The notes: a model not told the origin generated them from the sequence alone. Numbered from the stretch's first letter, positions 6,136 to 25,564 are shown. The stretch: DNA of 32,000 bases from Bradyrhizobium diazoefficiens (GCA_018129965.1 JAFCKW010000005.1); one strand, 5' to 3'. Program-made: numbers and translations.

Positions 6136-6187
6136 GCGTGGGTTGAACTTCGATTCCGCGATAGTGACATTCTCCGATACATTTTTG

Positions 6188-6280
6188 AGACTGTACGGCA
6201 TGCATGGATGCCGGCCTGATCAAGGGCGAAGCCTTCGTCGTCGATGCAAACATTAGCGAAGCAGACGCCAGCCGTTGTCA
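6188..6280 (+). mobile_element. Short fragment resembling an IS5/IS1182-type transposase
   Basis: Translation ACMDAGLIKGEAFVVDANISEADASR resembles the conserved GLvxGExFAvDaSxIxADAS stretch of IS1182/IS5-type transposases. About 30 codons only, with stops on both sides. Confidence 0.35.
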
Positions 6281-6289
6281 CGGCAACAC

Positions 6290-7014
6290 CCTGCCATTGA
6301 GTTGATAGACGACGACATACAAAGTCGTGCGTGAAAAATTTCTAAGCCATTGAGCGCGAGTCAGTTTTTGGCTCGCTTGCGGGTTTGAGATTGCAGGGTT
6401 CAGGCGCGCACAACCTTCGTGGCGCCTCCGGCCGCGCGTCGCAAGAGGTTTTCGTCGAGCTGGCGTCAGCGGTCTTGTATCAATGTATCCGGTCTCTGAT
6501 TGGAGCGAGTTTTGCTCCGGACCAATATGGATATCAGCGCGCGCGCGTGCGATCTCATTATGGACAGGCCTCAACGGGCCATTTGGGTCACCAGTGTCGC
6601 ATGCGCCGGTAAGACCGATCCTGCATCTCTTCTTATCCTCTCGCAAACCTCATCGAGTAAAGGGTGCGGTGGCTTGCCAACAGCATGGGCTCGACCGCCT
6701 GCTTGAGCCGCGTCTTCTCTATCGCGACCATCTCGGTCGACTGGCGACAGCGCCTTCAGGGCTTGCTGTTCGGCGGAAGACAGCGGGCGGATCTCGTCGA
6801 TCATGACAAGAGCGAAGCGCGCAATCAGCCGCGCGTCCAGCCTGTCGGTCTTGGCGCGCCGCCCCTCGGTCTCGCGGAAGGCCTTGATGCGGCGCGGATT
6901 AACGATGCCGATCGCCTCCAACATGAGGCGGCTAACACCCTCGTGCCGGAGCCTGCGGATGCCATCGGCGATGGTAAGCGAAGGCGCTTGCTGCGCGAAC
7001 GAGGCTGCTGTCAT
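6290..7014 (-). mobile_element. IS110-family transposase remnant (multiple frameshifts and deletions)
   Basis: IVNPRRIKAFRETEGRRAKTDRLDARLIARFA is the hallmark N-terminal IS110 (DEDD) motif. The following LKALS.R..EMVAIEKTRLKQ segment appears in a shifted frame. The N-terminal EATG region is deleted and the C-terminal part is only vaguely recognisable. Confidence 0.55.
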
Positions 7015-7350
7015 GGATTAGACTTGTATGCCGACTTGCAGCGCCAGGCCGCCGTCCTTGCGACTGTTCGATCGAGAGACCCGACGCAGACGCCGTTGCC
7101 GGGCTACGACCGCGCCCGCGGCCAGGAATCCAACGAGCTGTCTGCTTCGCCTGTCACTCTACAGTGACGAGGCCAAGATACCGGAATCCACTTTTCGGGA
7201 TCAGGCCCTTGGGCCGGACGCCAGTCGGATAGGTCCGTCAGGCGCTTCAGCAACGACCGCGGGCAGGTGGGACCCTAATACTAAAGGACCGTATCCCAAG
7301 TCATAGGACAATAGTTGACTAAGTTATCATCAGCGAGAGGAGGCGGGACT

Positions 7351-8130
7351 ATGCATGCCATCTTGGAATCTGAGCCGCGGGCGGCTGACCCGCAAAAAAC
7401 GAAAAAGATGATCAATCTCGTGCCGGTGGCCATCTCCTGGGGAGTGCTGCTCGCCATCTACGTAGGGCTTCGGCTTTACCAGCAGGCATTTGCGTTCAAG
7501 TACGGCCTGGATTCGACATCCCCCGAATTTGCGACCTACTGGCTGACGCTGTTCAAAGTCGAGGTACCGCTTATTTTCGGGGTGGGCTTCGCCATTTGGG
7601 CCTACCTTTGGCTCACCCGGGATAAGAACCTCGACAAGATCGACGCCGAAACGGAACTGCGCCGCTACTTTAGCCTCGTCGCGTGGTTTTTGCTGTATAC
7701 GTTTTCTTTTCTGTGGATTGCTAGCTTCTTTGGTGAGAGCGATGCTAGTTGGCATCAAACCGTGATTCGCGACACCGCGCTTACTCCCAGCCATATCGTC
7801 GTATTTTACGCTTGTATTCCACTGTATATCATCTTGGGCGTTAGCAGCCTTCTATATGCTACCACGCGGATTCCCAAATTCTCAAAAGGCTATTCGGTGC
7901 CGCTCATCATGGCTGTGCTCGGGCCCGGGCTCATTCTGCCGAACCTTGGCTATAACGAGTGGGGCCACGCGTTCTGGCTCACTGAAGAAATCTTCAGCCA
8001 TCCGCTCCATTGGGGCTTCCCGGTTCTTGGGTGGACCGGCTTTGCTCTTGGCGGCGTCCTTCTTCAGGCGACCATGAGGATGGCGGAGCTTTTCAAAGAG
8101 ATCGATGGCGCAAACTTGGCGAAAGCCTGA
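7351..8130 (+). CDS. pmoC: Copper membrane monooxygenase subunit C (PmoC/AmoC family), divergent
   Basis: FFGESDASWHQTVIRDTALTPSHIVVFY gives Asp-x3-His-x12-His. NEWGHAFWLTEEIFSHPLHW gives Asn-x3-His-x13-His. Both have the spacing of the PmoC metal sites as I recall them. Multiple TM helices. ATG at 7351 is preceded by GAGAGGAGG with 7-nt spacing. The TTG at 7315 in the ORF track is unlikely. Confidence 0.9.
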   Translation: MHAILESEPRAADPQKTKKMINLVPVAISWGVLLAIYVGLRLYQQAFAFKYGLDSTSPEFATYWLTLFKVEVPLIFGVGFAIWAYLWLTRDKNLDKIDAETELRRYFSLVAWFLLYTFSFLWIASFFGESDASWHQTVIRDTALTPSHIVVFYACIPLYIILGVSSLLYATTRIPKFSKGYSVPLIMAVLGPGLILPNLGYNEWGHAFWLTEEIFSHPLHWGFPVLGWTGFALGGVLLQATMRMAELFKEIDGANLAKA

Positions 8131-8170
8131 CGCCTTGGCTGATGCCGGCGATGGTGGACAATGCGAATGT

Positions 8171-8218
8171 AGGCGGTGTCTCTGCTGAATCGACTGACTG
8201 ACAGGTAGGACACCGCCT
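8171..8218 (+). promoter_or_regulatory. Intercistronic stem-loop between subunit C and A genes (10-bp perfect stem, 28-nt loop)
   Basis: AGGCGGTGTC (8171-8180) is the exact reverse complement of GACACCGCCT (8209-8218). No U-tract follows, so it is not a canonical intrinsic terminator. The loop contains GACTGACTGAC. Confidence 0.5.
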
Positions 8219-8269
8219 TCGGCAAAGAACCGTTGCCTAATCATAAGAATACGAATTACCGGGGGGAGC

Positions 8270-9073
8270 ATGACTGACAACGATCAGGCAATTTTAGCTG
8301 CGGCAGAAATGTCGCCAAGAATAGCGCGCTATTCACGAACTTTCGACTACCTGATTGTCGTCATAGCTGCCTTCCTTGTATGGTCTGTTACGCACATCCA
8401 TTTTCTCCTTTTCGCTGGGGACTGGGATTTTTTTATTGACTGGAAAGACAGACAGTATTGGATTCTGATAACGCCGATAGTCTCCATAATGTCGGCCGCG
8501 GCATTTCAGGCGATTTTCTGGTCTCTATTTCGCCTGCCAATCGGAGCGACAGCTAGCGCACTTCTGTTCCTGATCGGCGTCTGGATTGTCAGATACCATA
8601 GTTGGGAAGGCATGGCCTACTTCCCGCTCAGTCTCGTTGTTCCAGCGACCGGTCTAGTCGGAGCGATGGCGCTCGACTGCATCCTCGTGCTGAGCCGAAG
8701 CTGGGTTATAACGGCCGTGTTCGGCGGCGTTATTTATGGTCTCTCGTTCTTTCCGACAAACTGGATTTATCTGGCGCCATATTTCCAGCCAGCAGAGCAT
8801 ATGGGTGAGATGGCGTCTGTTGCCGATATCATCGGCTACGTCTTTCCTCGTTCAGGCACGCCTGAATACATAAGAATTATCGAACGCGGAACCTTGCGCA
8901 CGTTCGGCGACTCCGCAAACTGGGTCTCAGCATTCTTTTCTGCGTTCGTTTGCATATTCGCCTACTCGGTGTTCTGGTTGATGGGTGTGGCCGCTTGCAC
9001 ACCCAAATACATACCGGTGGGATACCGCTTCAAGGAGCTTTATGGCGCTAAAATCGATGCGGGTGCCGTATGA
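8270..9073 (+). CDS. pmoA: Copper membrane monooxygenase subunit A (PmoA/AmoA family), divergent
   Basis: HIHFLLFAGDWDFFIDWKDRQYW and RSGTPEYIRIIERGTLRTFG match the two most conserved PmoA/AmoA blocks. Polytopic membrane protein. GGGGGGAG SD sits before the ATG. About 20 aa longer at the C-terminus than the PmoA sequences I recall. Confidence 0.9.
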   Translation: MTDNDQAILAAAEMSPRIARYSRTFDYLIVVIAAFLVWSVTHIHFLLFAGDWDFFIDWKDRQYWILITPIVSIMSAAAFQAIFWSLFRLPIGATASALLFLIGVWIVRYHSWEGMAYFPLSLVVPATGLVGAMALDCILVLSRSWVITAVFGGVIYGLSFFPTNWIYLAPYFQPAEHMGEMASVADIIGYVFPRSGTPEYIRIIERGTLRTFGDSANWVSAFFSAFVCIFAYSVFWLMGVAACTPKYIPVGYRFKELYGAKIDAGAV

Positions 9074-10329
9074 GCAAGATATTGAAAAAGGCGACGTTGC
9101 TCGTTTTGGCCGCGACGACATTGCTATTTTCCCTTATGGATCAGGCCGCATTCGCGCACGGCGAGCGGGCGACCGAGCCTTACATCAGAACGCGCACTGT
9201 GCATTGGTATGACGTCACTTGGTCAACCGATGCGCTTAACGTCAACGACACAGTAACCGTCCAGGGCAAGTTTCACTTATTGAACGATTGGCCGGATTCG
9301 GTGAGTCTGCCCAATCTGGTGTTCCTTTCCAACGGCTCGCCCGGCGCCGTCATGACCCGCGTAGAATCGTACATCAACGAAATTCCCGCACGGCAGTCCA
9401 CCAAGGGTTTGATCATCGGACGGGATTATGACTTCAAACTCGTTATGAAGGCGCGTAAGGTGGGACAGTGGCACCTTCATCCGGTCATGAACATCCATGG
9501 GGCCGGGGCGGTCGTTGGGCCGGGAGAATGGATAACTGTCAGCGGCAACGAAGCGGATTTCAAGGATCCGCTCACGACCTTGACTGGAAACAAGATCGAC
9601 GATCTGCAAACGTTTGGCGTTTCACGCGTGCAGATGTGGCAGTTTGGGTTCGGGCTGATTGCCGCGGTGTGGATCCTATGGTGGCTGCGCAGGCCCCTCA
9701 TCATTTCGCGCTGGCTCGTGGTCCAGAAGGGGCGAGAGAACCTTCTCATCACTCCAATGGACGACAAGGTTGCGGCGGGGCTGCTGGTCCTCTTGGCGAT
9801 GGTGGTGCTGGTCGGATACACCAGAACGACGTCCGAGTTTCCGGAACTGGTTCCGCTTCAATCGGGGTCTCTCTCCGCGCCGCCACTGCCCAAGCCGCCC
9901 CACGCGGTTGAAGTCAAGTTCAAGAGGGCCGAGTACGACGTTCCCGGTCGGTCCATGCGCTTGAGCGTAGAGATGACCAATACGTCCGATCAACCCGTGA
10001 GCGTTGGCGAGTTCACCACCGCTAACCTGCGTTTCATAAATAAGAGTCTTCCTGCGGCGGTGGCGGCAGTCAGTTCGAAATTTCCGAAGGAGCTGGTCCC
10101 CCGGAACGGCCTTGTCATCGACAATCCGGAGCCGCTTGCACCTGGTGAAAGCCGTCTGGTGAACCTGGATACAACGGATGCGGCATGGGAAGTAGAACGT
10201 CTGGTGAGCTTTCTTTCTAACGTTGACAGTAGAATGGGCGGATTGCTGTTTTTCTATGACGGGAAAGGCAACCGCTCCATGAGCGAAGTATACGGGCCCA
10301 TTGTTCCAGTCTTCAAAAAGACGATCTGA
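9070..10329 (+). CDS. pmoB: Copper membrane monooxygenase subunit B (PmoB/AmoB family), divergent
   Basis: The signal peptide ends AAFA|HGE, so the mature N-terminus is His30. HGERATEPYIRTRTVHWYD...GKFHLL and GQWHLHPVMNIHGAGAVVGPGEW align with PmoB copper-ligand blocks. Two central TM helices are followed by a C-terminal beta-rich domain. ATGA overlap with the subunit A stop. Confidence 0.9.
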   Translation: MSKILKKATLLVLAATTLLFSLMDQAAFAHGERATEPYIRTRTVHWYDVTWSTDALNVNDTVTVQGKFHLLNDWPDSVSLPNLVFLSNGSPGAVMTRVESYINEIPARQSTKGLIIGRDYDFKLVMKARKVGQWHLHPVMNIHGAGAVVGPGEWITVSGNEADFKDPLTTLTGNKIDDLQTFGVSRVQMWQFGFGLIAAVWILWWLRRPLIISRWLVVQKGRENLLITPMDDKVAAGLLVLLAMVVLVGYTRTTSEFPELVPLQSGSLSAPPLPKPPHAVEVKFKRAEYDVPGRSMRLSVEMTNTSDQPVSVGEFTTANLRFINKSLPAAVAAVSSKFPKELVPRNGLVIDNPEPLAPGESRLVNLDTTDAAWEVERLVSFLSNVDSRMGGLLFFYDGKGNRSMSEVYGPIVPVFKKTI

Positions 10330-10358
10330 AGCCAGGTTTAATAGGACGAAGCTGCGCG

Positions 10359-10967
10359 ATGGTCGATAAGCTCACGATCAGGAGGTACTCCAGATCGGCA
10401 TTGCGCGGCCTTTCGTTTGCAGTGCCTCTGCTGGTTTTGTCGTCCCAGCCGGCCTCTTCCCACGGTGGCGTCAGTATGGAAAATGACGTGTGTAGGCTCC
10501 GATTGGGAGCATACATCATGCACTTTACCGGGTACCAGCCGCAAGCAACCGGCAGCAGGGAGTTCTGCGAAGACATTCCGGAGACCGGCAAAACCGTGGT
10601 GGTGCTGGACGCGGTTGATGAGGCTCTGCGCGACATCCCGATCGAGGTGCGAATCGTGCGGGATACGGGAGACAACAGCAATTTGGAGACCATCACCGTT
10701 GTGCACCTGCAGCCCAAAGTTTACCCCTCTGGCAGCATTGCCTTGGAATATACGTTCGACAAGGCTGGAAAATTTATCGGACTGGTTACCGCGGGCGCAA
10801 AGGGCGAATACGTCTCACGGTTTCCCTTCAGTGTGGCTTCTGGAAAGTCGTTCTACGAGAAATACCTGCTTTTCATCGTAGTTCCATTGGTAGGATTTGC
10901 CTTATATCGTTATTCGGCACGTGTCAGAAAGAAATTGGACACCCGCCTAAGTATACCACCAAACTAG
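10359..10967 (+). CDS. Secreted, C-terminally membrane-anchored beta-rich protein of unknown function (PmoD/AmoD-like architecture; possible copper protein)
   Basis: Lies 29 nt after the subunit B gene on the same strand. The signal peptide ends PASS|HGG, giving His35 as the predicted mature N-terminus. Has Cys45-x8-Met54-His55 plus Cys70. About 125 aa with alternating beta-strand-like pattern. One C-terminal TM helix (YLLFIVVPLVGFALY) is followed by a basic tail (RVRKK). Confidence 0.6.
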   Translation: MVDKLTIRRYSRSALRGLSFAVPLLVLSSQPASSHGGVSMENDVCRLRLGAYIMHFTGYQPQATGSREFCEDIPETGKTVVVLDAVDEALRDIPIEVRIVRDTGDNSNLETITVVHLQPKVYPSGSIALEYTFDKAGKFIGLVTAGAKGEYVSRFPFSVASGKSFYEKYLLFIVVPLVGFALYRYSARVRKKLDTRLSIPPN

Positions 10968-11065
10968 CTGGGATAAGGCCGGTGATTGTTTGGCCAGGAG
11001 GGGGAACGGGCCTTGCCGCCAAGCTCGCTAGGAGAGCTAGCGCGACCGGCGAGGCGAAGCTGAGG

Positions 11066-12001
11066 ATGCGCGTTGTAATTGCGCTTGTGGTGGCATCGTG
11101 TTCTGGATGCTCCGGATCATCGGAGCCGCCGGAGGGGACTTCGGTCGTCAGCTTCGACTATGCGCACGCTGTGCGCCGCGGCTCCTGTTCCCCCGGCAGC
11201 AAGCCGGCCGGAGCAGGTGCCACCGACGGCCTCACATCGCGCGATGGCTTTCATTATAACGTGAGGGCACCTGCAAACCTCGATCCGACCTATGCGCATC
11301 CGCTGCTCGTCGTCTATGCGCCGGCGGGCTATGATGCGAAACAGAGCGAATCCCTCACCCGCCTCACCACCGAGGCAACCCGCAGCGGCTTCGTCGTGGT
11401 TTATGTCGGTAGCCGTCCTCTATCGGTGAAGACGATAGAAAAACTTGCGCAGCTACCTAAAGAAGTTGCCGCCGTTTGGTGCGTCGATCCAAATCGAGTG
11501 TATGCGACCGGCCACTCCGATGGCGGAACGGTGTCCATTGCGCTCGCCGTTCTGGAAGAGACTACAGGCACCGTGTCGGCAATTGCTCCGAGCGCCGCGG
11601 GCTTCTCTCGGAAAGACCTCGAAGCCTTTCGATGCCCGAAGCCCATTCCGGTGATGGTCATGCACGGCAAGCAGGACACACATTTTCCGGGCTGGGGAAA
11701 GGAAGCCGCCCTGTGGTGGGCGCGCTGCAATGCCTGTAACATTAGAAGATTGCCTGTGTCGCAAGACAATGGGTGCCTCGCCTTCCAGGGTTGCGCGCCC
11801 AACGGGACCACGATTTACTGTGAGGGCGGCGGTTCTCATAAGGACTGGCCGCCGTTGCAAAACGAAATATTGCGATTTTTCGAATCCGTCAGCTCGCTGG
11901 GGATGCGGCAAGGAACTCTGCAAGCTGGCCAACTTTCGGAAGATATCCGGCGTCATGGTCTAACCATTCGTCTGCTGCACGAATCTCGCTGTTGCCTATG
12001 A
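11066..12001 (+). CDS. Lipoprotein alpha/beta-hydrolase, PHB-depolymerase/LpqC-type esterase family
   Basis: Lipobox VVASC directly after MRVVIAL. Nucleophile elbow GHSDGG, acid-residue block VMHGKQDTHFP and His block GGGSHKDWP. The ORF track starts at 10982, but ATG 11066 gives a sensible lipoprotein signal. Confidence 0.7.
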   Translation: MRVVIALVVASCSGCSGSSEPPEGTSVVSFDYAHAVRRGSCSPGSKPAGAGATDGLTSRDGFHYNVRAPANLDPTYAHPLLVVYAPAGYDAKQSESLTRLTTEATRSGFVVVYVGSRPLSVKTIEKLAQLPKEVAAVWCVDPNRVYATGHSDGGTVSIALAVLEETTGTVSAIAPSAAGFSRKDLEAFRCPKPIPVMVMHGKQDTHFPGWGKEAALWWARCNACNIRRLPVSQDNGCLAFQGCAPNGTTIYCEGGGSHKDWPPLQNEILRFFESVSSLGMRQGTLQAGQLSEDIRRHGLTIRLLHESRCCL

Positions 12002-12345
12002 TGCCGGTCCACGCGAATGGCGGTCATGATCCGGCACGGCGTTTGCGAAGCAGCGCTCACTTGGCCCGCAAGATTGAGTTGCCGACGGGCCGTATCTTTG
12101 ATGCACTGCATCATGTCTATACCGCTCGGACGCTCGGGGCGAAACCCGTGACCTTGAAGCTATTCTGGTCGAGCCGAGAGACGCAAGGCAGGCCCAGACA
12201 TTGCCCATTTCCAGCGCCGCGCGATGCGCTTAATTGTAATTGTTAGCCACAAATACCGTATTCAGAAGGGTAGCTGCATCGTTCATCTGCGATTTGCTCT
12301 GAGAGAACCCGTTAGAGGGTCGCGCGCCGAGTATGGGAGGACAGA

Positions 12346-12520
12346 ATGACAGAGCTTGTGCCGCCGGATCTGATCCCAAACTGGATCCCCGGCGAGAAGA
12401 TCGTGGACAGTTCTCACCTTGGCTGGAGCGGCCTAACGCTCAAAGGGTATCACTATCCTGACCAGGAAGCGAACATTCCCTTAATGCGCGACTACATGAT
12501 CGTTATCTATGAAGGCGCCG
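12346..12520 (+). pseudogene. N-terminal fragment of an AraC-family regulator (truncated)
   Basis: MTELVPPDLIPNWIPGEKIVDSSHLGWSGLTLKGYHYPDQEANIPLMRDYMIVIYEG resembles the cupin-type N-terminus of AraC regulators. The frame then runs into the antisense of the reductase remnant. No HTH domain is present. Confidence 0.4.
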
Positions 12521-13482
12521 CAGTCGGCGCCGGCGCCTTGAGGCCACAGAGGCTGCGCGCGGCGATCTGGGCCTGCGACGTGGCATTGTGGATCGTCTCG
12601 ATCCGGAAGCGCCCGCCAAGGTAGGGGTTATCCGCGGCGGTGCAATCGCCGATGGCATAGATCTTCGGGGCGGAACTGCGCATGTGGCTGTCCACGACGA
12701 TGCCGTTCGTGCAGGTCAGACCCACCTGACCGCCAGTCCGTGATTGGGCACCGCGCCGATCCCGACGATGACCAGATCCGCCGCAAACGCCTCGCCGCTG
12801 TCCAGGATGCAGGCGCTGACCCTGCCATCGCTGCCCGCGATCGAGCTCAGCCGGGTGTTGAGCCGGATATCCACACCCTCGGTTCGGAGCCGCTTTGTCA
12901 CAAGGTTGGAAGCAGAGGGCGTCGCGACCCGCGCCATGACGCGGCCGGCAGCCTCGATCACCGTGACCCGCTTGCCCTATTCGACAGCCGCCGACGCGAT
13001 CTCCAATCCGATCACCCCGCCGCCTAGAATGGGAAGCGAGGTGCAGCCGGCGAGCGCTTCCTTCAGGCCCCGCGCATCGGAAAGGCTGCGCAGATAGCAG
13101 ACGCCGTTCAGGCCGGCCCCCGCGCAGTGCGCTGGATCCGGTTGCCAGGATCAGCGCCTCATAGGGATACGCCCTGCCTCCCTGGTGACGACTCTGCTGC
13201 GGGCGCGGTCGATCTCGACAACCTTGGCGCCGGTCTCGAGCTGGATTCGGTTCTGTTCGAAGAACGGCTCCGGCTTCAGCCGGGTCGCCGCGCCCCGGTG
13301 GCAAGAAATGCCTTTGAAAGTGGTGGCCGCTGATAGGGCGCCACAGTTTCCGCGCTCAGCAGCGTGACTCGGCCTTCAAAGCTGTGTTGCCGCAGCCAGG
13401 ACGCGGCGTAGACGCCGGCGGTTCCAGCTCCGACGATGACGATACTCTCCTCCATTAGCGCATCCTTTTCTGTTCCGGCCAA
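12507..13482 (-). pseudogene. Rubredoxin/ferredoxin-NAD(P) reductase (AlkT-like FAD pyridine-nucleotide-disulfide oxidoreductase), pseudogene
   Basis: The pieces lie in order over three frames. They are IVIVGAGTAGVYAA...APYQRPPLSKAFL; YPYEALILATGS; GVCYLRSLSDARGLKEAL...ILGGGVIGLEIASAAVE-TAG-GKRVTVIEAAGRVMARV...DLVIVGIGAVPN; and GIVVDSHMRSSAPKIYAIGDC...RIETIHNATSQAQIAA. There are at least three frameshifts and one in-frame TAG. The C-terminal roughly 80 aa are missing. Confidence 0.85.
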
Positions 13483-13499
13483 AGTCCCGAAATACCCCG

Positions 13500-16103
13500 T
13501 CAGATCAGATTGCGACGCTCGGCCTCGCTGATGGCCTGCACGCGGTTGCGTGCTTTCAGGTCAGCGAAAATCTTGCGCATATGCCATTTCACCGTGTCTT
13601 CGCTGACCAGGAGCTGGTCGGCGATCCGCTTGTTCGAAAGTCCATCGCGGGCAAGTCGCAGGACGCTGATCTGCCGGACGGACAGCGTGGTAAGCTCGGG
13701 GGGGAGCGAGGGCCGCTCAGTCCTTGGCCTTGGCCTGGCGATCCCGTCGAAATCGAACGTGACAAAGGCATCGGCGGATGCCGGGGTCAGGGCCAGCAAC
13801 AGATCCCGCGTGTCTAGCCCAGTCCGATAGCATCCCAACTGCTTGATGAGTTCGAAGGCATTGACCGCCTTTCGTCGTGCGGGTGTCAGCGCTCCGGCGG
13901 CGGCATGGGCCGCGGCTTCGCACATCAGCGCGCGCACTTCCAATCGACCAGCGCCGATCGACCGGGCGATCTTGGCAGCCGCCTCGGCATTGCGGCGGGC
14001 GAGGCTGTGCTGCCGCTTGGGGATGGCTTCCATCGCGCGCAACAGCGATATTTGAGCACGCATGGGTCTTGCATGGGGCCCGGACAGGACCTCACCAGAG
14101 TCCCTCGGCAGCAGGTGGTCGACGTCGTGCGTACCGCTGAAGAGGGCCAGTTCGGCAAGTTCCAACTCGATCAGCACTCCCAGTCGCGGCAACGACCTTT
14201 CCGCCGCAAGCGCGCGTGCCCGTTCCAGCAACGCCGCGGCGCCCCTGATATTGCCCTTGGCCCGATGCCATGTCGCGATGACGCGGCTCACACCGTAGAA
14301 CACGTCGGTGACGCCGTAGTTGAAGATGAAGTCAAGCAAGCCGGCGATGGAATTCTCGTCGAAATCCAGCCGCCGTTGCTCGAACAGCGTCTCAAGTTCC
14401 AGAGCGATCAGCATCTTTGACGAAAAGGATGTACGTGTCACCTCAACATCGCTGTCATTGCGGGCGGTATCGATAAGCTGCAATGCGGCGCGCATGTCGC
14501 CCCGGGCGAGAGCCGCGTGGATCTCGGCCGCATAAAGCCAGCCAAAAGCATAGCGCTGGCGCGCGGCGCTGTTGACCGAATGGGCCATGATCAGGGCCTG
14601 CTTCAGTTCGTCAAACCGGTATTCACTGGCCAGCATGAAGGCCAGACAGGTGAGTGCCGCACCCTTACCGACGGAATTATCGTCGCCGAAGTTTTGGATC
14701 CAGTCGTTGCACAGCCGTTCGCTCAATTGCAGTTCGTCATGGGTAGCAGCACCAATCGCGCGGACCAGTTGCAGCCAGCCGCGGTCAGGATGCGCGCCGG
14801 ACGGCGTGCGCGGGGCGGGCAGATAGGCCAGCAGCTTTTCGGCTTTGTCGGCCTGCTGGCTGAAATACATGGTCCAGGCGTAGCTGAGGCAGATGATCGG
14901 ATGCTTGCGCAACTCGCGGGCTGGGAAACGGCCAAGCCATTCGCGCAACGCCTCGATCTCGCCCTGGCGCAGGGCGAGATCGAGCATGATGTCCTCGCTC
15001 AGTCCCAGCGCCCAGCGGTGGTCGCCCGCCCGCAGCGCAAGGTTTACCGCCCTCTGGAACTCGCGCCTCCGCCAGTGCCAGAAGGCCGCGCGTTTCAGGA
15101 CATAGGATTTTCGCTCGGCACTGCGCGCCAAAAACCGATGCTGAAGGTAGTCGCGTAGAACCGGGTGCAACGAGAATAGCGTCGGGCCGCTTTCGGCCGG
15201 GCGAAACAGCAAATGATCGAGGTTGATCTCCTCGATCAGCGCGGCGGCGTTGGTGGACTTGTAGGCGTAATTGTAGCTTTCCGCCGAAATCGGGTCGATC
15301 ATCGCTGCGTTTTCAACGAACTCAAGCTGCTGGCGCGACAGGCGCCTCTCGATCTCCTCGTGGAGGAAGGTTACCGTTTCAGGCCAGTTTGCCGCGGGCC
15401 GGACCGGCAATTCGGTCCGGCACATGATGTGGCAGAGCGCGGGCCAGCCCTGCGTCTCCGCGATCATCTGCTGCGCCGTTACGTTGGGGACCGGGTGCAC
15501 CTTCAAGAACGCTTCGGCATCATCCAAGGTAAAGGCCAGATCGCGGGCATAGACCTCCCGCACTCCGCTTTCGAGCCCAAGCCGGGCAAAACCGCGCCGG
15601 GTATCCCCGGCGATAGCGAATCGGACATTCGGCGGACTTTCCAGCGCGAAGGTTTCCAGTGCGTGCAGCAGAGCGGGTGCGTGTTCGATGTCGTCGATGC
15701 AGATTACCTTGGCCGGCCGCTCAGCGCCGAATTCTTCCCATAGCGTGGACACCAACTCGGCCAGATCCGCCGGGACCGCCCGGTTTTCGCGGGGCGCTGC
15801 GTCGAGCAGTTGGCTGCAGATGGCCTCTGCCAGCGCGCCTTCCGTTCCGCATCCGTCGCGCAAAGACACCCAGGCCGCGTTGTTTCCAGCCGCCCTGAAG
15901 GCCAACCAGTTCTGCGCCAGAACGACTGATTTTCCATAACCCTGCGTTGCGCGCAGGATCAGTGTCCGGAGCTCCGGTTGGCCTGAAAACGTAAATCTGG
16001 GCCGCGCGATACAGCCCTTGGCGATCGTCTCCAGACGCGCGGAAATGCGGGCGGCAAGCAGCCGTCCCGAATGTATCGGGTCGTCGCTGGTATCCATGGT
16101 CAT
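13500..16103 (-). CDS. AlkS-like LuxR/MalT-family (STAND ATPase + TPR-like + LuxR HTH) transcriptional activator
   Basis: 867 aa. N-terminal P-loop ATQGYGKS. Long helical-repeat middle region. C-terminal LuxR HTH LSVRQISVLRLARDGLSNKRIADQLLVSEDTVKWHMRKIFADLKARNRVQAI. Divergent from alkB and followed 17 nt later by the reductase remnant, as in the alkST arrangement. Confidence 0.85.
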   Translation of the reverse strand: MTMDTSDDPIHSGRLLAARISARLETIAKGCIARPRFTFSGQPELRTLILRATQGYGKSVVLAQNWLAFRAAGNNAAWVSLRDGCGTEGALAEAICSQLLDAAPRENRAVPADLAELVSTLWEEFGAERPAKVICIDDIEHAPALLHALETFALESPPNVRFAIAGDTRRGFARLGLESGVREVYARDLAFTLDDAEAFLKVHPVPNVTAQQMIAETQGWPALCHIMCRTELPVRPAANWPETVTFLHEEIERRLSRQQLEFVENAAMIDPISAESYNYAYKSTNAAALIEEINLDHLLFRPAESGPTLFSLHPVLRDYLQHRFLARSAERKSYVLKRAAFWHWRRREFQRAVNLALRAGDHRWALGLSEDIMLDLALRQGEIEALREWLGRFPARELRKHPIICLSYAWTMYFSQQADKAEKLLAYLPAPRTPSGAHPDRGWLQLVRAIGAATHDELQLSERLCNDWIQNFGDDNSVGKGAALTCLAFMLASEYRFDELKQALIMAHSVNSAARQRYAFGWLYAAEIHAALARGDMRAALQLIDTARNDSDVEVTRTSFSSKMLIALELETLFEQRRLDFDENSIAGLLDFIFNYGVTDVFYGVSRVIATWHRAKGNIRGAAALLERARALAAERSLPRLGVLIELELAELALFSGTHDVDHLLPRDSGEVLSGPHARPMRAQISLLRAMEAIPKRQHSLARRNAEAAAKIARSIGAGRLEVRALMCEAAAHAAAGALTPARRKAVNAFELIKQLGCYRTGLDTRDLLLALTPASADAFVTFDFDGIARPRPRTERPSLPPELTTLSVRQISVLRLARDGLSNKRIADQLLVSEDTVKWHMRKIFADLKARNRVQAISEAERRNLI

Positions 16104-16156
16104 CGACGTCTCAAAGCACGCACGAATGAGCGTAGGATACTTGTTTGGAACACAAG

Positions 16157-16176
16157 AACTACACCTAAGTGTAGTT
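16157..16176. promoter_or_regulatory. Perfect 8-4-8 inverted repeat in the divergent regulator/alkB promoter region (candidate operator)
   Basis: AACTACAC-ctaa-GTGTAGTT. Lies 54-73 nt upstream of the regulator start and 116-135 nt upstream of the alkB start. Confidence 0.45.
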
Positions 16177-16291
16177 GTGGATCCTGACGCAATGATCTCC
16201 GCTTGCTCGGTCGCCCGCTCGGGAACCGGGAAGGGCGTACTGGTGTCACCTGCCGCGCGATGAATGGTGGGGTCAAGGGAGGATATGCCGA

Positions 16292-17494
16292 ATGATCAAT
16301 ACGCCAGAACAATCCGCTTCAACCGTGGGGTACGTTGACCACAAGCGCTATCTCTGGATGCTGTCCACCCTGTGGCCGGCAACGCCGATGATCGGGCTGT
16401 GGCTGGTGGCGCAGACCGGTTGGAGCATCTGGTACGCCCTGGTCCTGATCATCTGGTACGGGATGGTGCCGCTTCTGGACGCGATGTTCGGCGAGGATTT
16501 CAACAACCCGCCGGAAGAGGCCGTCGAGATGCTCGAGAAGGACCGATACTATCGCGTCCTAACCTATCTGACCGTGCCGATCCATTATGCAGCCCTTCTG
16601 GTGTCGGCCTGGTGGGTCAGTACCCATGCGATGTCTTGGCCCGAAATCATAACCTTGGCGCTCTCGCTGGGAATCGTGAACGGCCTCGCGCTGAACACCG
16701 GGCATGAGCTCGGGCACAAGAAGGAGACTTTCGACCGCTGGTTGGCCAAGCTGGTGCTTGCGGTTGCGGGTTACGGTCATTTCTTCATCGAGCACAACAA
16801 GGGCCATCACCGCGACGTTGCCACCCCGATGGATCCCGCGACCTCACGAATGGGCGAAAGTATCTACCAATTCTCCACCCGCGAGATCCCCGGTGCCTTC
16901 CGCCGCGCCTGGGCACTCGAGGAAGAGCGTCTGTCGCGCCGGGGCAAAAGCGTTTGGAGCCTGGAGAACGAGATTTTGCAGCCGATGCTGATCACCTTCG
17001 CGCTCTATGCGGGCCTGCTGGCCTTTTTCGGCCCCCTGATGCTGGTCTTCCTTCCGATCCAGATGGCGTTCGGGTGGTGGCAGCTGACTAGCGCCAACTA
17101 CATCGAGCATTATGGCCTGCTGCGTGAGAAGCTGCCCAATGGCCGCTACGAGCACCAGAAACCGCACCACTCGTGGAACTCGAACCACATCGTGTCGAAC
17201 CTGATCCTGTTCCATTTGCAGCGCCATTCGGATCACCACGCGCATCCGACGCGGTCCTACCAATCGCTGCGCGACTTCAAGGATCTGCCGACGCTGCCCT
17301 CGGGCTATCCGGGCATGTTCTTCATCGCGCTGATCCCGGGCTGGTTCAGGTCGGCTATGGACTCGCGCGTGGTAGATTGGGCCCATGGCGATCTGAGCAA
17401 GATTCAGATCGAGGATGGCAAGCAAGCGTTTTACGAACGCAAGTTTGGCACGGTCGGCACCGACGCTAAGCCCGGCCTGGTTGCTGCCGAGTGA
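16292..17494 (+). CDS. alkB: Integral-membrane alkane 1-monooxygenase (AlkB, di-iron)
   Basis: All histidine boxes are present: HELGHK, EHNKGHH, NYIEHYGL and LQRHSDHH. TM-rich N-terminal half. 400 aa. Confidence 0.95.
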   Translation: MINTPEQSASTVGYVDHKRYLWMLSTLWPATPMIGLWLVAQTGWSIWYALVLIIWYGMVPLLDAMFGEDFNNPPEEAVEMLEKDRYYRVLTYLTVPIHYAALLVSAWWVSTHAMSWPEIITLALSLGIVNGLALNTGHELGHKKETFDRWLAKLVLAVAGYGHFFIEHNKGHHRDVATPMDPATSRMGESIYQFSTREIPGAFRRAWALEEERLSRRGKSVWSLENEILQPMLITFALYAGLLAFFGPLMLVFLPIQMAFGWWQLTSANYIEHYGLLREKLPNGRYEHQKPHHSWNSNHIVSNLILFHLQRHSDHHAHPTRSYQSLRDFKDLPTLPSGYPGMFFIALIPGWFRSAMDSRVVDWAHGDLSKIQIEDGKQAFYERKFGTVGTDAKPGLVAAE

Positions 17495-17722
17495 AGCGCC
17501 ATCTTCCGCGCCGCTCTGGCTTGCCGAGCGGCATGGACACCCGACACCACAGCCCCGAGCCGCACGACTCGTTTCAATCGTCGAGCGGCAGCGGCTGGCC
17601 ATGTGGGGCGGTCAGGCCGTGCGATAGGATAGGGGGCCGCGCGCCGATCACGGAGAAGACCAGAGATAGCTGCCATTCGGCCCGGCAAAACCGGATCGGC
17701 GGAAAAGGGAGGAAATAGGAAC

Positions 17723-18283
17723 ATGGCCAGGTACCAGTGTCCCGATTGTAAATACACCTATGACGAAACGCTGGGCCATCCGCATGAAGGATTTCCTGCA
17801 GGCACTGCTTGGGCCAACGTGCCCGACGAATGGGCTTGCCCCGATTGCGCAGTGCGCGACAAGGTCGATTTCGAATTAATCGGCGGATCGCCCGCCGCTA
17901 CCACGTCGGCTACTCAGGCCGTCGAGGTTGCCGCGGCGGCACATAGCGCCGTAACGGTCACTGACACCGCAGTGATCGAGAAGCCCGCCAGCCCGATGTC
18001 GGAACCGGCAGTGCGAACGACAGGCGTCCTGCGGGCCGTGGCCTCGGCCCCGGAGGCTATGCAATCCGAAGCGGTCGTCATGGACGGCAAGTCCCCCTCT
18101 GCTGGCTGCAAGCCCTTTGCGAAATGGATATGCATCACCTGCGGCCATATCTATGACGAGGCGCTTGGTGATGCGTCCGATGGCTTCGCCGCTGGGACGC
18201 GGTTCGAGGATATTCCTGACGATTGGTGTTGCCCGGACTGCGGCGCAACGAAAAAAGACTACGTTCTTTGCCAGGAAACTTAG
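17723..18283 (+). CDS. alkG: Two-domain rubredoxin (AlkG-type)
   Basis: Two complete CxxC...CxxC rubredoxin modules ([12 protein letters not shown]...WACPDCAV and [12 protein letters not shown]...WCCPDCGA). They are joined by a roughly 70-80 aa Ala/Thr/Ser/Val-rich linker. GGGAGG SD. Confidence 0.92.
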
Positions 18284-18339
18284 TCAATCCGTGTCGGCAA
18301 AGTGTATCGGGCCGATCAGGCCTGCTATGGAGGTCAACC

Positions 18340-19791
18340 GTGAATATTCACGCTCATCCGAACGACATATCGTTGGGCGATACCAGATCATCCCTTGCGG
18401 ATGTTTTTGTGAAGCAACGCAGGGCAGGCTGGGCGCGGCGCTCGGATTTCGACCGCAAGGCACGCATCGCGGCGCTGAACCGGCTGAGGGAAGTCCTGCA
18501 GCGGCGCGAGGCGGACATCATCGCGGCTCTCCATGCGGATTTCCGCAAGCCCGAGAGCGAGGTGAGGCTGACCGAAATCTTGCCGGTGCTGCAGGAGATC
18601 GCGCACACCAAACGCCACCTGAAGGGCTGGATGCGACCACGCCGGGCGGCGGCCACACTGGGTGTTCTGGGCACCAAGGCCAGGATCCGGCCCGAGCCGA
18701 AGGGTGTCTGCCTGATTATTGCGCCCTGGAACTATCCGTTGAACCTGGCGTTCGGGCCGCTGGTCTCGGCACTGGCGGCGGGCAACAGCGCGATCATCAA
18801 GCCGTCGGAACTGACGCTCGCGACCTCTGCCCTGATTGCAGATATCGTGGCCGAGACGTTTTCGCCAGATCTGGTGGCGGTGGTCGAGGGCGATGCTGCG
18901 GTCTCGCAGGAATTGCTGGCGCTGCCGTTCGACCACATCTTCTTCACCGGCAGCCCGCAGGTGGGCAAGCTGGTGATGGAGGCGGCGGCGAAATCGCTGG
19001 CCTCGGTTACCCTAGAACTGGGAGGCAAGTCGCCCACCATCGTCGGCCCCACCGCCAACCTGAAAAAGGCCGCGCGCAATATTGTTTGGGGCAAGTTTGC
19101 CAACAACGGCCAGACCTGCATCGCGCCCGACCACGTGTTCGTGCACCGCGACATCGCGCAGAAGTTCAACGAGACGGTGGTGGCGGAAATCGGCCGCGTC
19201 TATGGCAAGACGCCCGAGGCGCAGAAGATGACACCCGATTATTGCCGTATTGTGAACGACCGGCATTTCAACCGAGTTGCCGGCCTGATCGAGGATGCCC
19301 GTGCCAAGAGCGCGCGGATCCTGCTGGGCGGGCAGACGGACGCGGCGCAGAAATTCGTGGCGCCCACGCTGATCAGCCAGATCACCCTCGAGATGGCGAT
19401 TTCGCGCGAGGAGCTGTTCGGCCCGATCCTGCCGATCATCGAATATGACGATATCGACAAGGTGATTGATCAGATCAACGCCAACCCGAAACCGTTGGCG
19501 CTTTATGTCTTCGACAATAGCCGGGCTTTTGCCGAGGACATCATCACGCGCACCAGTTCGGGCGCGGTGGGGATCAACCTGACGGTCGTGCATTTCCTGC
19601 ATCCCAACCTGCCCTTTGGCGGGGTGAACAACTCGGGCATCGGTGCGGCGCACGGAATCTATGGCTTTCGGGCATTTTCGCATGAAAAGGCCGTCCTGCA
19701 GGACCGGTACTCGATCGTCCACATGCTGTTCCCGCCCTATACGGGTTTCGTGAAGCGGCTCATCAGCCTTGTCGTCAAGGTGCTGGGGTGA
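18340..19791 (+). CDS. NAD(P)-dependent aldehyde dehydrogenase, class-3/fatty-aldehyde type (AlkH-like)
   Basis: Catalytic blocks LELGGKSP and [14 protein letters not shown], plus [13 protein letters not shown] at 18340 is preceded by GGAGG with 6-nt spacing. The ORF-track start at 18223 would overlap the rubredoxin gene by 61 nt. Confidence 0.9.
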
Positions 19792-21437
19792 CCGGTTCGA
19801 TGGAACAACGATCAGAAAGTCACGGAATGTACGACTACATCATCGTGGGAGCCGGTTCGGCGGGCTGCGTGCTTGCAAATAGGCTGTCCGCAGATCCCAC
19901 GAAGCGCATCCTCTTGCTGGAGGCGGGACCGCGAGACAAAAGCGCGCTGATCCATACGCCGATCGGCATCGCGCTGCTGGCCAACAGCAAGAAACTGAAC
20001 TGGGCCTTCAATACCGAACCCCAGCGGCATCTGAACGCCCGCCGTCTGTTCTGGCCGCGCGGCAAGACGCTGGGCGGGTCCAGTTCGATCAACGCCATGG
20101 TCTATATGCGCGGCCACGAGGCGGATTACGACGGTTGGGAAGCTGCCTCTGACACCTCGGTCTGGGGCTGGGACCGTGTCCGCGCCCTGTTCAAGCGACT
20201 GGAAAACAATCAACGGTTCGGAAGTTCCGAATATCACGGGGCGGGCGGTGAACTGTTCGTCAGCGAATTGCAGACGGTCAACCCGCTCAGCCGATCCTTC
20301 GTCAAGGCGGGGCGTGAACTGCAGATCCAGCATAACGATGATTTCAACGGCGAGCGTCAGGAAGGGGTCGGCCTTTATCAGGTTACGCAGAACCGCGGGC
20401 GGCGCTGGAGCTCGGCCAAGGCGTTTCTGGAAAGCGCGCTGGATCGGTCGAACCTGGAGGTCGTCACCGATGCGCGGGTGACCCGCGTGGTGATGGACGG
20501 TCGGCGCGCGACCGGCGTGTCCTACAGGCGGGGCAACGAATACAAGCAGGCGCGGCTGAACCCCGGGGGCGAGGTCCTGCTGTCCGGCGGCGCGGTGAAC
20601 TCGCCGCAGATGTTGATGCTTTCAGGCATCGGCGCGGCGGAGGAGCTGAAGGAACATGGCATTCCGGTGGTGCATGACCTGCCCGCCGTGGGCAAGAACC
20701 TGCAGGACCATCTGGACATCACGCTGATGAACGCGGCCACTTCGCGCAAACCGATCGGAGTGGCGTTGAGCTTCCTGCCGCGTGGGGTGGCGGGGCTGTT
20801 TTCCTACATCTTCCGCCGCAAGGGGTTTCTGACCAGCAACGTCGCGGAATCGGGCGGCTTCGTCAAAAGCACACCCGAGCGCGACCGGCCGAACCTGCAA
20901 TTCCACTTCCTCCCGACCTATCTGAACGACCATGGACGCAAGATCACCTATGGTTATGGCTATACCCTGCACATCTGCGACCTGCTGCCGAAAAGCCGGG
21001 GCAGGATCGGTCTGAAAAGCCCCGATCCCCTGGATGATCCGCTGATCGACCCGCAATACCTCGAGGACCCGGAGGACATGAAAACCATGATCGCCGGGGT
21101 CAAGATCGGCAGGCGCATCTTCGACGCGCCTGCCATGGCTGTTCATTCCCGGCGCGAGGTTTTGCCCGGTCCCGCGGTTCAGAGCGATGACGAGATCGCC
21201 GCCGATATCCGCAAGCGGGCTGAGACGATCTATCACCCGGTCGGAACCTGCCGGATGGGCGCCGACCCGGCGTCGGTGGTCGATCCGCAGCTTCGGGTGC
21301 GCGGTATCGAGGGGCTACGGGTGATCGACGCCTCGATCATGCCGACGTTGGTAGCGGGCAACACCAATGCGCCGACCATGATGATCGCAGAAAATGCCGC
21401 TGACATGATTTTGGGGAACATCCATTTGCAAGCCTGA
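19788..21437 (+). CDS. GMC-family FAD alcohol dehydrogenase (AlkJ/choline-dehydrogenase-like)
   Basis: [23 protein letters not shown] fold, [13 protein letters not shown], and C-terminal [10 protein letters not shown]...[24 protein letters not shown]. Possible starts are GTG 19788 (overlaps the upstream stop), ATG 19800 or the ATG of MYDY. Confidence 0.9.
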
Positions 21438-21659
21438 AAAATCGCAGTAATTCCGCCGAGGCTGCCACCCCACAAATGATGTTGATCCGGGAGGGGTGAC
21501 CGCAATCGGGCGGGCTCCGATGGGGAGCCTACATCCGACGCTCTCAGCGCTTTCGCATCGGACAGGACGGATCAATCCTGTCCACGAAACTCAACCCCGA
21601 TCCGCCCGTAACGTTCGCGGATCGTGCGGCAACAAACAAACCATCGGAGGGAAGTGCGT

Positions 21660-21830
21660 ATGCTCGGATTGATGCAAGACTAGCCTTTGCTTTGCCATCG
21701 GATTATCGAACACGCGGCGAAGTATCACGGTACGCAAGAGGTTGTCACGCGGTCGGTCGAAGGTCCCATTCATCGCACCAATTACGCCGAAATTCATGCG
21801 CGCGCGCTGAAAGTATCGCAACGGCTCGCA
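21660..21830 (+). pseudogene. N-terminal fragment of a medium/long-chain acyl-CoA synthetase (AlkK position), with in-frame stop
   Basis: MLGLMQD-TAG-PLLCHRIIEHAAKYHGTQEVVTRSVEGPIHRTNYAEIHARALKVSQRLA. GGAGGG SD before ATG 21660. The TAG at 21681-21683 sits where related ligases have Trp (TGG). Homology ends near 21830. Confidence 0.7.
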
Positions 21831-22111
21831 GGGCCCTGGCGGCTCAACCAAGGGTGCTGATGCTTGATGAGCCGTCGATGGGGCTCGCACCTCAGGTCGT
21901 TGCTGAAATATTGCGCCTGATCTTGCGCATGCGACACGAATTGGGACTTGGGATACTTCTCGTTGAGCAAAATGCCGAGGCAGCGCTGCGTATCGCAGAC
22001 CACGCCTGCGTGCTCTCTCTGGGGCAAATCACTCTGCGCGGCGCAGGCGCAGATCTCTTGAATGATCCGAGTGTCGTCGAGGCGTTTCTTGGGGGGAATG
22101 CGGCTACTTGA
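21812..22111 (+). pseudogene. C-terminal fragment of a LivF-type branched-chain amino-acid ABC ATPase
   Basis: ALAAQPRVLMLDEPSMGLAPQVVAEILRLI...GILLVEQNAEAALRIADHACVLSLGQITLRGAGADLLNDPSVVEAFLGG. It begins at Walker B. Walker A, the Q-loop and the signature motif are absent. Confidence 0.7.
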
Positions 22112-22522
22112 TGGAAACCCACCGCATCTCCGAGTCAGGACCGGATCGCGAACTGCTTGCATCGCTGCGTGCTCTGACAGGACTGGATACCCCACCCCCG
22201 CAACCATAGAGCGTTTCGAGACCGAGTATCCGAATGCAACTTTCTGGGCGACGTTCGGTCAATCCGAAACCTCGGGCTTGGCGATGCTTTCGCCGTATCG
22301 CGACCGTCCGAAATCCGCGGGCCGGCCGCTGTTTTGGCGCAGCATCACGGTCGTCCATGGCGATGACCGCGCGAAGCCGGCCGGCGAAATCATCGACTTC
22401 GTAGGCGGACAAATCGCTCGCTACAAACGGCCGAAGCACGTTGTGTTGGTCGATAAACTTCCGAGGACTGCGGGGGCGACCTCGATCGGGCTGCTGTTAA
22501 ATCAGCGCACGGGCAGACGTAG
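22112..22522 (+). pseudogene. Middle and C-terminal fragments of an acyl-CoA synthetase (AMP-binding family), frameshifted with internal deletion
   Basis: LASLRALTGLD / IERFETEYPNATFWATFGQSETSG...SAGRPL...VVHGDD then directly EIIDFVGGQIARYKRPKHVVLVDKLPRTAG. The natural end GDLDRAAVKSAHGQT-stop (22520-22522) is only readable after a 1-nt frameshift. Confidence 0.65.
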
Positions 22523-22553
22523 CGGCAAAAGTAACCCGCCGCGACGGGCCGCC

Positions 22554-23483: not shown

Positions 23484-23514
23484 ATCGGATGCCGATTGCC
23501 AGAGGAAACGTGGT

Positions 23515-24288: not shown

Positions 24289-24308
24289 GAAATTATCCTC
24301 GTTGTCTA

Positions 24309-25547: not shown

Positions 25548-25564
25548 GGCGGCGGCTCCCATTC

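Follow-up and report, generated by a model that had tools for sequence, protein, structure and literature searches.

A 32,000-nucleotide stretch of DNA from Bradyrhizobium diazoefficiens (GCA_018129965.1, JAFCKW010000005.1), referred to here in its entirety as the window, carries on its plus strand an operon for a copper-containing membrane monooxygenase (CuMMO; 7351-12001) and, downstream of it, a set of genes beginning with the di-iron alkane monooxygenase gene alkB (16292-21437). The host of the window is a Bradyrhizobium-like alphaproteobacterium. We consider it likely that this neighborhood is a lineage-specific mosaic, in which an intact CuMMO operon and a truncated OCT-type alk cassette were joined by gene-breaking rearrangements, and not an integrated pathway. 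The gene map was assembled from the open reading frame (ORF) listing and from Pfam and NCBIfam profile scans of the whole window. An earlier note made from the sequence alone (the original prediction) had placed the two modules next to each other, with a spacer of two gene remnants and an AlkS-like regulator between them and with alcohol and aldehyde oxidation encoded on the alk side only, and our map bears this description out. Profile matches locate both modules at the coordinates above, the spacer consists of a 5' piece of an AraC-type gene, an alkT (rubredoxin reductase) remnant in three frames and an alkS gene of 867 codons, and alkJ and alkH are the sole alcohol and aldehyde dehydrogenase genes in the neighborhood.

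Genes are truncated at both ends of the alk segment

The left junction lies at 12518/12519. Homology to the AraC-type gene of the closest genome identified, that of Bradyrhizobium manausense SZCCT0118 (locus L001), ends exactly at 12518 and is followed by the truncated alkT. Of the AraC-type regulator gene the window retains a 5' fragment of 58 codons (12346-12518, plus strand), recognized by homology to the L001 gene and 93% identical in amino acid sequence to the first 58 residues of the intact 297-residue L001 protein. On the other side of the junction, alkT is a pseudogene (12540-13473, minus strand) that was recovered by tblastn with intact AlkT proteins as pieces in three frames, corresponding to residues 7-63 (frame -3), 69-261 (frame -2) and approximately 254-323 (frame -1); it contains two frameshifts and two in-frame stops, the latter in the middle piece, and has lost the last ~75 residues. 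The same state is found in two independent assemblies (L081 and L082), with contigs 100% identical over 21 kb, and is thus no sequencing error. The window therefore encodes no linked functional AlkT, and the GPo1-like layout with a divergent regulator-reductase pair that the original prediction described holds for the gene order, which is indeed mirrored, but not for the reductase, which is dead.

At the right junction, near 22155, the segment gives way to DNA (22155-32000) that is collinear with two soil metagenome contigs (L103 and L104) at ~86% nucleotide identity. Those contigs have no alk genes and contain an intact 502-residue acyl-CoA ligase gene convergent to the NMO gene. Comparison with them identified the corresponding host fadD-like ligase of the window as a remnant (22155-22516, plus strand) that retains residues 270-352 and 443-501 of the 502-residue gene, with an internal deletion and a frameshift. 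This remnant forms part of ~1.1 kb of gene debris in three fragments (21660-22516, plus strand). The first fragment is a 5' stub of alkK (21660-21830, plus strand), detected by tblastn at 30-39% identity over the first 57 residues only and interrupted by in-frame stops, one of them at codon 8. An ORF at 22062-22607 was considered as the C-terminus of AlkK and rejected, as it is a remnant of the different, host acyl-CoA ligase. Between the alkK stub and the fadD-like remnant lies a third gene fragment, the 3' piece of a LivF-like ABC ATPase gene (21836-22111, start approximate, plus strand; weak AAA_21 match on an ORF at 21692-22111), in which the Walker-B region LMLDEPSMGLAP is readable. The acyl-CoA synthetase gene that had been expected after alkJ does not exist; its place is taken by this patch of alkK stub, LivF-like piece and unrelated host ligase remnant.

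Both ends of the alk segment are thus truncated, and each faces a resident gene that is itself cut short. Since an intact AraC-type gene cannot regenerate from a 58-codon stub, the state in which the alk genes adjoin the CuMMO operon is the derived one. Base composition changes at the same point: positions 1-12518 have a GC content of 55-57% (58-69% at third codon positions, GC3), and positions 12519-32000 have 62% (GC3 71-81%), with the step falling exactly at 12518/12519. The compositionally atypical, low-GC part is the CuMMO-bearing left block. The alk cassette, at 62% GC versus 46-54% in its plasmid and marine copies, is of a composition that suggests long residence in high-GC hosts.

We propose that two independently mobile hydrocarbon-oxidation modules of known kinds would have been joined in an ancestor of this lineage by at least one deletion or illegitimate recombination. 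Events on the left would have cut the AraC-type gene and the 3' end of alkT, and events on the right alkK and the host fadD-like gene, leaving the CuMMO module in a low-GC block with insertion sequence (IS) remnants and the alk module as a truncated, GC-ameliorated cassette. We infer a part for IS elements in these events only from the IS remnants nearby and from the sister lineage described below. A joint arrival of both modules on one larger segment of a plasmid or an integrative and conjugative element, with secondary loss of the alk genes in SZCCT0118, strikes us as very improbable. Both blocks do look acquired, in view of the IS remnants, the atypical GC content on the left and the presence of the cassette on conjugative plasmids, and the identity to L001 is mosaic just before the junction, falling from 98.5% to 79-83% from ~11736 (the 3' end of the esterase gene) and returning to ~97% in the AraC 5' fragment. 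Against this, the AraC-type gene of SZCCT0118 is intact, which makes the alk-adjacent state derived, the GC step coincides with the junction, and no tRNA, integrase or element end was found in the window. Scans of the window for tRNAs and with Rfam gave no match, and thus no tRNA integration site and no riboswitch, and a megablast search of 7000-22000 against plasmids returned partial alkB and GMC matches only and no known plasmid segment.

The adjacency is confined to one lineage

The SZCCT0118 locus is 98.5% identical to the window over positions 1-11886. The ~7 kb between the xmo operon and the contig end are free of alk genes and contain genes for a chemoreceptor, the intact AraC-type regulator and an Abhydrolase_3 protein; as SZCCT0118 keeps the CuMMO operon in this setting, the operon can do without alkJ and alkH beside it. 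The alk-free arrangement is repeated exactly in two JGI contigs (L110 and L111), with a CuMMO 98-98.5% identical to that of the window. In the region before the AraC-type gene (window 11736-12300; L001 13430-17300), SZCCT0118 has a 3.4-kb stretch with the chemoreceptor gene where the window has 175 bp. AraC-type and Abhydrolase_3 genes also recur near CuMMO genes in SZCCT0118 (L001 17316-19314), in an uncultured Bradyrhizobium (L024 19802-19969) and in Solimonas aquatica (L107 7507-8712 and 19912-20804), and the regulator whose gene is cut short in the window might once have been associated with the CuMMO.

For a wider view, we assembled a set of 160 CuMMO loci, 80 each from GTDB species representatives and from metagenomes, with 1.76 Mb of flanking sequence in total and at least 8 kb downstream in 61 loci. 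Homologs of AlkB, AlkG and AlkJ were found in the flanks of none of the 160. In a metagenome-assembled genome (MAG) of Panacagrimonas, a CuMMO and alkB are both present, ~790 kb apart. A GMC oxidoreductase near the Solimonas CuMMO was rejected as a counterpart of AlkJ because the match covers only 67 C-terminal residues. We saw the adjacency in just two settings, namely in contigs that match the window exactly, recovered from many samples, and in a sister lineage with 98.4% identity and the same left junction. When JGI metagenome contigs were scanned for exact copies of the 45-bp left-junction sequence, none was found in that collection; the identical JGI and Logan contigs had been reached through a protein index. 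Our literature searches returned no report of a CuMMO next to alkB. The juxtaposition is therefore not conserved among relatives, being absent from SZCCT0118, from both JGI contigs with its arrangement and from the 160 other CuMMO loci.

In the sister lineage (L084 and L085), an IS element lies in xmoB, with the last 150 codons of the gene left beside it, an IS630-type element is inserted in the alkT remnant, and a 266-bp deletion (20320-20586 missing) splits alkJ. The IS elements of this lineage are complete (DDE_5/DDE_Tnp_1 and DDE_3, the latter IS630-like; L084 1-2002 and 6052-6723), which shows that IS activity is ongoing. Compared with the sister lineage, the window has 96.5% identity in alkS but 99.75% in the neighboring alkB, a mosaic pattern that suggests recombination within the cassette. 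The original prediction had named a strain-specific accident of IS-mediated rearrangement as the outcome that would speak against an island, and our results come close to it: the arrangement is lineage-confined and its junctions run through broken genes, but there is no IS exactly at either junction.

The alk segment is a truncated copy of an OCT-type cassette by homology

Homology of the window to known alk cassettes begins in the truncated alkT, extends through alkJ and beyond it covers just the first 57 codons of alkK. By sequence homology, the alk segment (~12519-22154) is a truncated copy of the mobile OCT-type alk cassette. Relatives of its AlkB with 76-84% identity are encoded in the order alkT-alkS divergent from alkB-alkG-alkH-alkJ-alkK. 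Intact cassettes without a CuMMO occur on TARA ocean contigs (L088-L090, flanked by IS elements) and on metagenome contigs (L091 and L092), as well as on conjugative plasmids of Pseudosulfitobacter, Marinobacter and Pseudomonas, among them pSMR1-4 of Pseudosulfitobacter and pCP7-41 of Pseudomonas sp. 7-41; the latter carries the full alkST/alkBFGHJKL set. Viewed through these two plasmids, the GPo1/OCT system shares with the window the order alkT-alkS divergent from alkB-(alkF)-alkG-alkH-alkJ-alkK(-alkL). In contrast to it, the window has alkT as a pseudogene and alkK as a stub of 57 codons, and lacks both alkF and alkL; no AlkL match was found. With alkH and alkJ intact, the downstream set is thus partial, as in a truncated cassette. 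Unlike the plasmid and marine copies, the window cassette is GC-rich, has no plasmid or transposon visible around it in the window and is flanked by broken host genes.

Five genes of the segment are intact. On the minus strand, alkS (13500-16103) encodes an activator of the MalT/LuxR type with GerE and AAA domains; it remains under the cutoff of the NCBIfam MalT model (129 versus 537 bits), and WHD_MalT is the precomputed Pfam family for the identical 867-residue product in L081 and L082. Over its full length, AlkS is 53% identical to the pSMR1-4 protein and to the proteins in the AlkS position of the TARA cassettes, and 43% to that of pCP7-41. Divergently, on the plus strand, alkB (16292-17494; PF00487) encodes an integral-membrane di-iron alkane 1-monooxygenase with the histidine boxes HELGHK (at 138), EHNKGHH (167), NYIEHYG (269) and LQRHSDHH (309), which aligns with PDB 8SBB with an E-value of 8e-167 and is 80-84.5% identical to plasmid AlkBs (80% to that of the Pseudomonas plasmid pCP7-41). 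The gene alkG (17723-18283, plus strand) encodes a rubredoxin with two PF00301 domains and four CxxC motifs, 57% identical to cassette AlkG proteins. It is followed on the same strand by alkH (18340-19791; PF00171, E-value 1.6e-95), for an aldehyde dehydrogenase 73-79% identical to cassette AlkH (73-76% to the plasmid proteins), and by alkJ (19827-21437; GMC_oxred_N and GMC_oxred_C), for a GMC-family alcohol dehydrogenase 74-84% identical to cassette AlkJ. The start of alkH was taken from gene calls on identical contigs, and that of alkJ was corrected to 19827. The OCT-like features of the window also extend to Trp55 of AlkB and to the 20-bp palindrome of the alkS-alkB spacer, both of which are considered below.

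An intact CuMMO operon without dehydrogenase genes of its own

The three CuMMO subunit genes lie contiguously on the plus strand (7351-10329) in the order C-A-B, as given by matches to the Pfam families AmoC, AMO and Monooxygenase_B with E-values of 1e-80 to 1e-132: xmoC (7351-8130; PF04896, 2.9e-87), xmoA (8270-9073; PF02461, 1.6e-80) and xmoB (9070-10329; PF04744, 3.5e-132), all intact. XmoC passes the NCBIfam AmoC_BACT cutoff (336 bits; cutoff 319), and a regular-expression search showed both of its metal motifs to be kept, D-x3-H-x12-H (D131/H135/H148) and N-x3-H-x13-H (N202/H206/H220). XmoB aligns with Methylococcus capsulatus PmoB (PDB 3RGB) with an E-value of 6e-108, and this alignment, together with motif searches, showed that the copper ligands are kept: H30, which follows an AFA signal cleavage site, and H135-L-H137 in the WHxH (WHLH) motif. 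With the particulate methane and ammonia monooxygenases (pMMO and AMO), the enzyme hence has in common the three-subunit family, fold-level homology, the histidines of the CuB site and the metal motifs of subunit C. Unlike them, its XmoA falls below the NCBIfam equivalog cutoffs (AmoA_BACT, 276 versus 290 bits; PmoA, as CH4_NH3mon_ox_A, 259 versus 318 bits), and the window context has no genes for methanol, formaldehyde or hydroxylamine oxidation; methane and ammonia are for these reasons not the expected substrates. Judged by these profile scores, the enzyme is a member of the CuMMO family and not a recognized pMMO or AMO equivalog.

Two further genes complete the operon. A pmoD homolog (10359-10967, plus strand; phmmer against PmoD of PDB 6CPD, E-value 3e-19) encodes a protein with a signal peptide, a periplasmic domain and a C-terminal transmembrane helix, and is found 3' of xmoB in 65 of the 80 genome loci. 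Compared with 6CPD, the cysteine and one histidine are kept, but the Met pair flanking the cysteine (CMVM) is replaced (CRLR), so that the copper site may differ from that of characterized PmoD. The last gene encodes a lipoprotein esterase of the polyhydroxybutyrate-depolymerase family (11066-12001, plus strand; AXE1 and esterase_phb matches) with a VASC lipobox and a GHSDG nucleophile motif. This esterase accompanies the CuMMO in 42 of the 80 genome loci and, when the 25 closest loci are counted alone, in 14. As a conserved partner, it may hint at ester intermediates or subterminal oxidation.

The closest named relatives of XmoA are those of a Burkholderiaceae MAG (80% identity) and of Solimonas (66%), and proteins of Burkholderiaceae, Sterolibacterium, Rhodoferax, Panacagrimonas and Solimonas span this same range. 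Non-methanotroph CuMMO operons of Betaproteobacteria and of Nevskiaceae/Solimonas have been listed as of 'unknown function' (PMC6215863, PMC8630023). The window operon resembles them in its xmoC-A-B-pmoD order, in the esterase that usually comes next and in its conserved copper ligand motifs. Unlike various of these relatives, it has no neighboring sigma-54/MimR-like regulator, aldehyde dehydrogenase (ALDH), acyl-CoA ligase, CopCD or alcohol dehydrogenase (ADH). Among the 25 closest loci, such accessory genes comprise ALDH in six, acyl-CoA ligase in eight, CopC/CopD in approximately ten and pyrroloquinoline quinone (PQQ)-dependent ADH in two, in addition to the esterase. The substrates of this non-methanotroph clade, which comprises enzymes of Rhodoferax, Burkholderiaceae, Nevskiaceae and Solimonas, are presumed to be short-chain hydrocarbons. 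A CuMMO of this kind has reportedly been linked to alkane-utilizing Rhodoferax and Polaromonas, as the title of a 2020 study by Rochman and colleagues has it. Bradyrhizobium itself has at least two very different CuMMO types. The XmoA proteins of the type found in B. shewense ERR11, B. sacchari and B. manausense BR3351 are 46-47% identical to that of the window, which groups with the betaproteobacterial and Nevskiaceae enzymes and not with this commoner Bradyrhizobium type.

A putative AlkS operator lies upstream of alkB only

A repeat search of the alkS-alkB spacer identified a perfect palindrome, AACTACAC-N4-GTGTAGTT (16157-16176); it is conserved in the corresponding spacers of L088 and L091, and thus in three cassettes in all. 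It is the only copy in the 32-kb window when up to three mismatches are allowed, with 0.02 copies expected by chance. A 20-bp inverted repeat has been described as the binding site of AlkS (PMC8784404), and from its sequence and position we regard the palindrome as a putative AlkS operator. Upstream of xmoC, no copy of the palindrome was found at up to three mismatches, no sigma-54 -24/-12 element rose above chance, and an alignment with three relatives revealed no conserved motif. This position is occupied by a fragment of an IS110-family transposase gene (6571-7014, minus strand; partial PF01548 match, E-value 3.5e-10) that lies ~340 bp upstream of xmoC and is also present in SZCCT0118. Relatives of the CuMMO have regulators of their own, both of them sigma-54 activators: a MimR-like one in a Burkholderiaceae MAG and another in Solimonas. 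The two operons, xmo and alkBGHJ, run in the same direction 4.3 kb apart, and the antisense alkS and alkT between them make read-through unlikely. The suggestion that one regulator might serve both modules thus finds no counterpart in the sequence, where the palindrome stands upstream of alkB alone.

In the mosaic that we favor, AlkS would sense medium-chain alkanes, bind the palindrome and activate alkBGHJ, and the CuMMO operon would be expressed from its own promoter, outside the AlkS regulon. AlkB retains Trp55 (within LIIWYG), the residue that restricts GPo1-type AlkB to medium chains (PMC3604635), and would accordingly hydroxylate alkanes of roughly C5-C12 with electrons delivered by AlkG; GPo1 AlkB has, for its part, been reported to oxidize propane and butane (Johnson and Hyman 2006, as cited in PMC3604635). 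AlkJ and AlkH would turn the alcohol into a fatty acid, which an unlinked ligase and the β-oxidation-type genes to the right would process further. The retention of Trp55 makes different substrate ranges of the two oxygenases plausible.

The original prediction went further and saw an integrated island for two substrate ranges, in which the CuMMO would attack gaseous and short-chain alkanes, AlkB would attack medium chains, one AlkJ/AlkH pair would serve both and AlkS would possibly control the whole. Of this, the adjacency of two mechanistically unrelated oxygenases stands and the two ranges are plausible; the integration is, in our assessment, quite unlikely. In favor of integration, the two oxygenase sets are intact and evolve under purifying selection, two sub-lineages have inherited the adjacency, which occurs across many samples, alkJ and alkH are the only alcohol and aldehyde dehydrogenase genes nearby, and the window lacks the ALDH and ligase (L106) or the PQQ- and Zn-ADHs (Solimonas) that close CuMMO relatives have. 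Speaking against integration are the missing palindrome upstream of xmoC, the antisense alkS/alkT and two gene remnants between the operons, the truncated genes on both sides of the junctions, the confinement to one lineage (SZCCT0118 does without alkJ and alkH in the ~7 kb downstream of xmo, and the adjacency occurs at 0 of 160 other CuMMO loci), the disruption of both xmoB and alkJ in the sister lineage and the decay of the reductase and ligase genes that belong to the cassette itself.

Both oxygenases are probably functional

The retained genes show little sign of decay. The five genes alkS, alkB, alkG, alkH and alkJ (~7.4 kb) are free of frameshifts and premature stops, and the 0.93-kb alkT remnant has four disabling lesions. 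Ratios of nonsynonymous to synonymous substitution rates (dN/dS), which are based on few substitutions (3-90 per gene), were 0.16-0.27 for the xmo genes in the comparison with L001 (xmoC 0.18, xmoA 0.17) and, in the comparison with the sister lineage, 0.30 for alkS, 0.31 for alkG, 0.14 for alkH and 0.22 for alkJ; alkB differs from that of the sister lineage by three synonymous and no nonsynonymous changes. Low dN/dS and intact motifs over 7.4 kb beside a lesioned alkT argue for function of the retained genes in this lineage. From these sequence features, both oxygenases are probably functional and independently regulated. With alkT dead, an unlinked reductase would have to supply the electrons that AlkG passes on to AlkB. 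Many AlkB hosts have their rubredoxin reductase gene at a distance from alkB, so that activity need not be lost along with the linked alkT.

One could alternatively regard the alk segment, and perhaps the CuMMO operon too, as non-functional relics decaying after horizontal acquisition, with AlkB left without electrons for want of AlkT. The number of fragments (alkT, alkK, the AraC-type gene, and the livF-like and fadD-like genes), the IS remnants in the left block and the IS element in xmoB and deletion in alkJ of the sister lineage all lend themselves to this explanation. We nevertheless hold it to be unlikely, given the contrast between five lesion-free alk genes and the alkT remnant beside them, the integrity of all catalytic motifs, dN/dS values well under 1 in every retained gene, with none of the three changes in alkB nonsynonymous, and the fact that unlinked reductases are common among AlkB hosts.

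Several observations weigh against the reading of the neighborhood as a mosaic of separately acting modules. The small numbers of substitutions behind the dN/dS values are one. For SZCCT0118, the absence of alk genes refers only to the ~7 kb that follow the xmo operon in L001. The arrangement is also no one-off: contigs from many samples have it at 100% identity, a second sub-lineage shares it, and it has therefore persisted. No IS element or target-site duplication is present at either junction, and a search for repeats bracketing the alk segment gave only pairs at chance level; we therefore infer both the mechanism of rearrangement and the order of events. The window CuMMO operon brings no ALDH, ligase or ADH gene with it, unlike several relatives (ALDH and acyl-CoA ligase in L106; PQQ- and Zn-dependent ADHs in Solimonas), which leaves room for a use of AlkH and AlkJ. 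Finally, the sources consulted contained no published demonstration of the substrate of this CuMMO clade. A variant with an outside chance of being correct is that the CuMMO arrived without ALDH, ligase or ADH and may have been complemented by alkJ and alkH of the decaying cassette, the window then being an early two-oxygenase island caught before regulatory integration. If so, this complementation would represent early modular assembly of an island for short- and medium-chain alkanes.

Both modules are of known kinds, and only their physical adjacency is new; no new mechanism is opened by it, and no long-standing question becomes newly testable. The mosaic would provide a clean, datable example of module shuffling: of genomes that differ by ~1.5%, some have the alk cassette beside this CuMMO operon and others do not, and the scars are kept. 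It further adds a host of the Bradyrhizobium lineage, for which an isolate relative exists in SZCCT0118, to those of the poorly understood Rhodoferax/Solimonas-type CuMMO, and it shows that purifying selection can maintain an AlkB set of the OCT type even when its linked reductase has been lost.

Flanking genes

To the right of the junction, a β-oxidation/uptake-like cluster with genes on both strands (22554-31708) encodes NMO, SDR, an SCP-x-type thiolase, a family III CoA-transferase, an enoyl-CoA hydratase and a Liv-type ABC transporter. In the collinear soil contig L103, a bufferin-type copper-related cluster for a ribosomally synthesized and post-translationally modified peptide (15192-17725; BufA1, MbnB/TglH, HvfC and DoxX), absent from the window, lies a few kb beyond the intact ligase gene. 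The left block opens with a LuxR-type helix-turn-helix protein gene (9-443, plus strand), followed on the minus strand by genes for a hybrid histidine kinase (498-1850) and a FIST protein (1847-3106) and by a DDE_5 transposase fragment (3245-3628; PF13546, E-value 2e-31, profile positions 24-152 of 272 only). A gene for a PAS-GGDEF-EAL protein (4450-6135, plus strand) lies between this fragment and the IS110 fragment upstream of xmoC.

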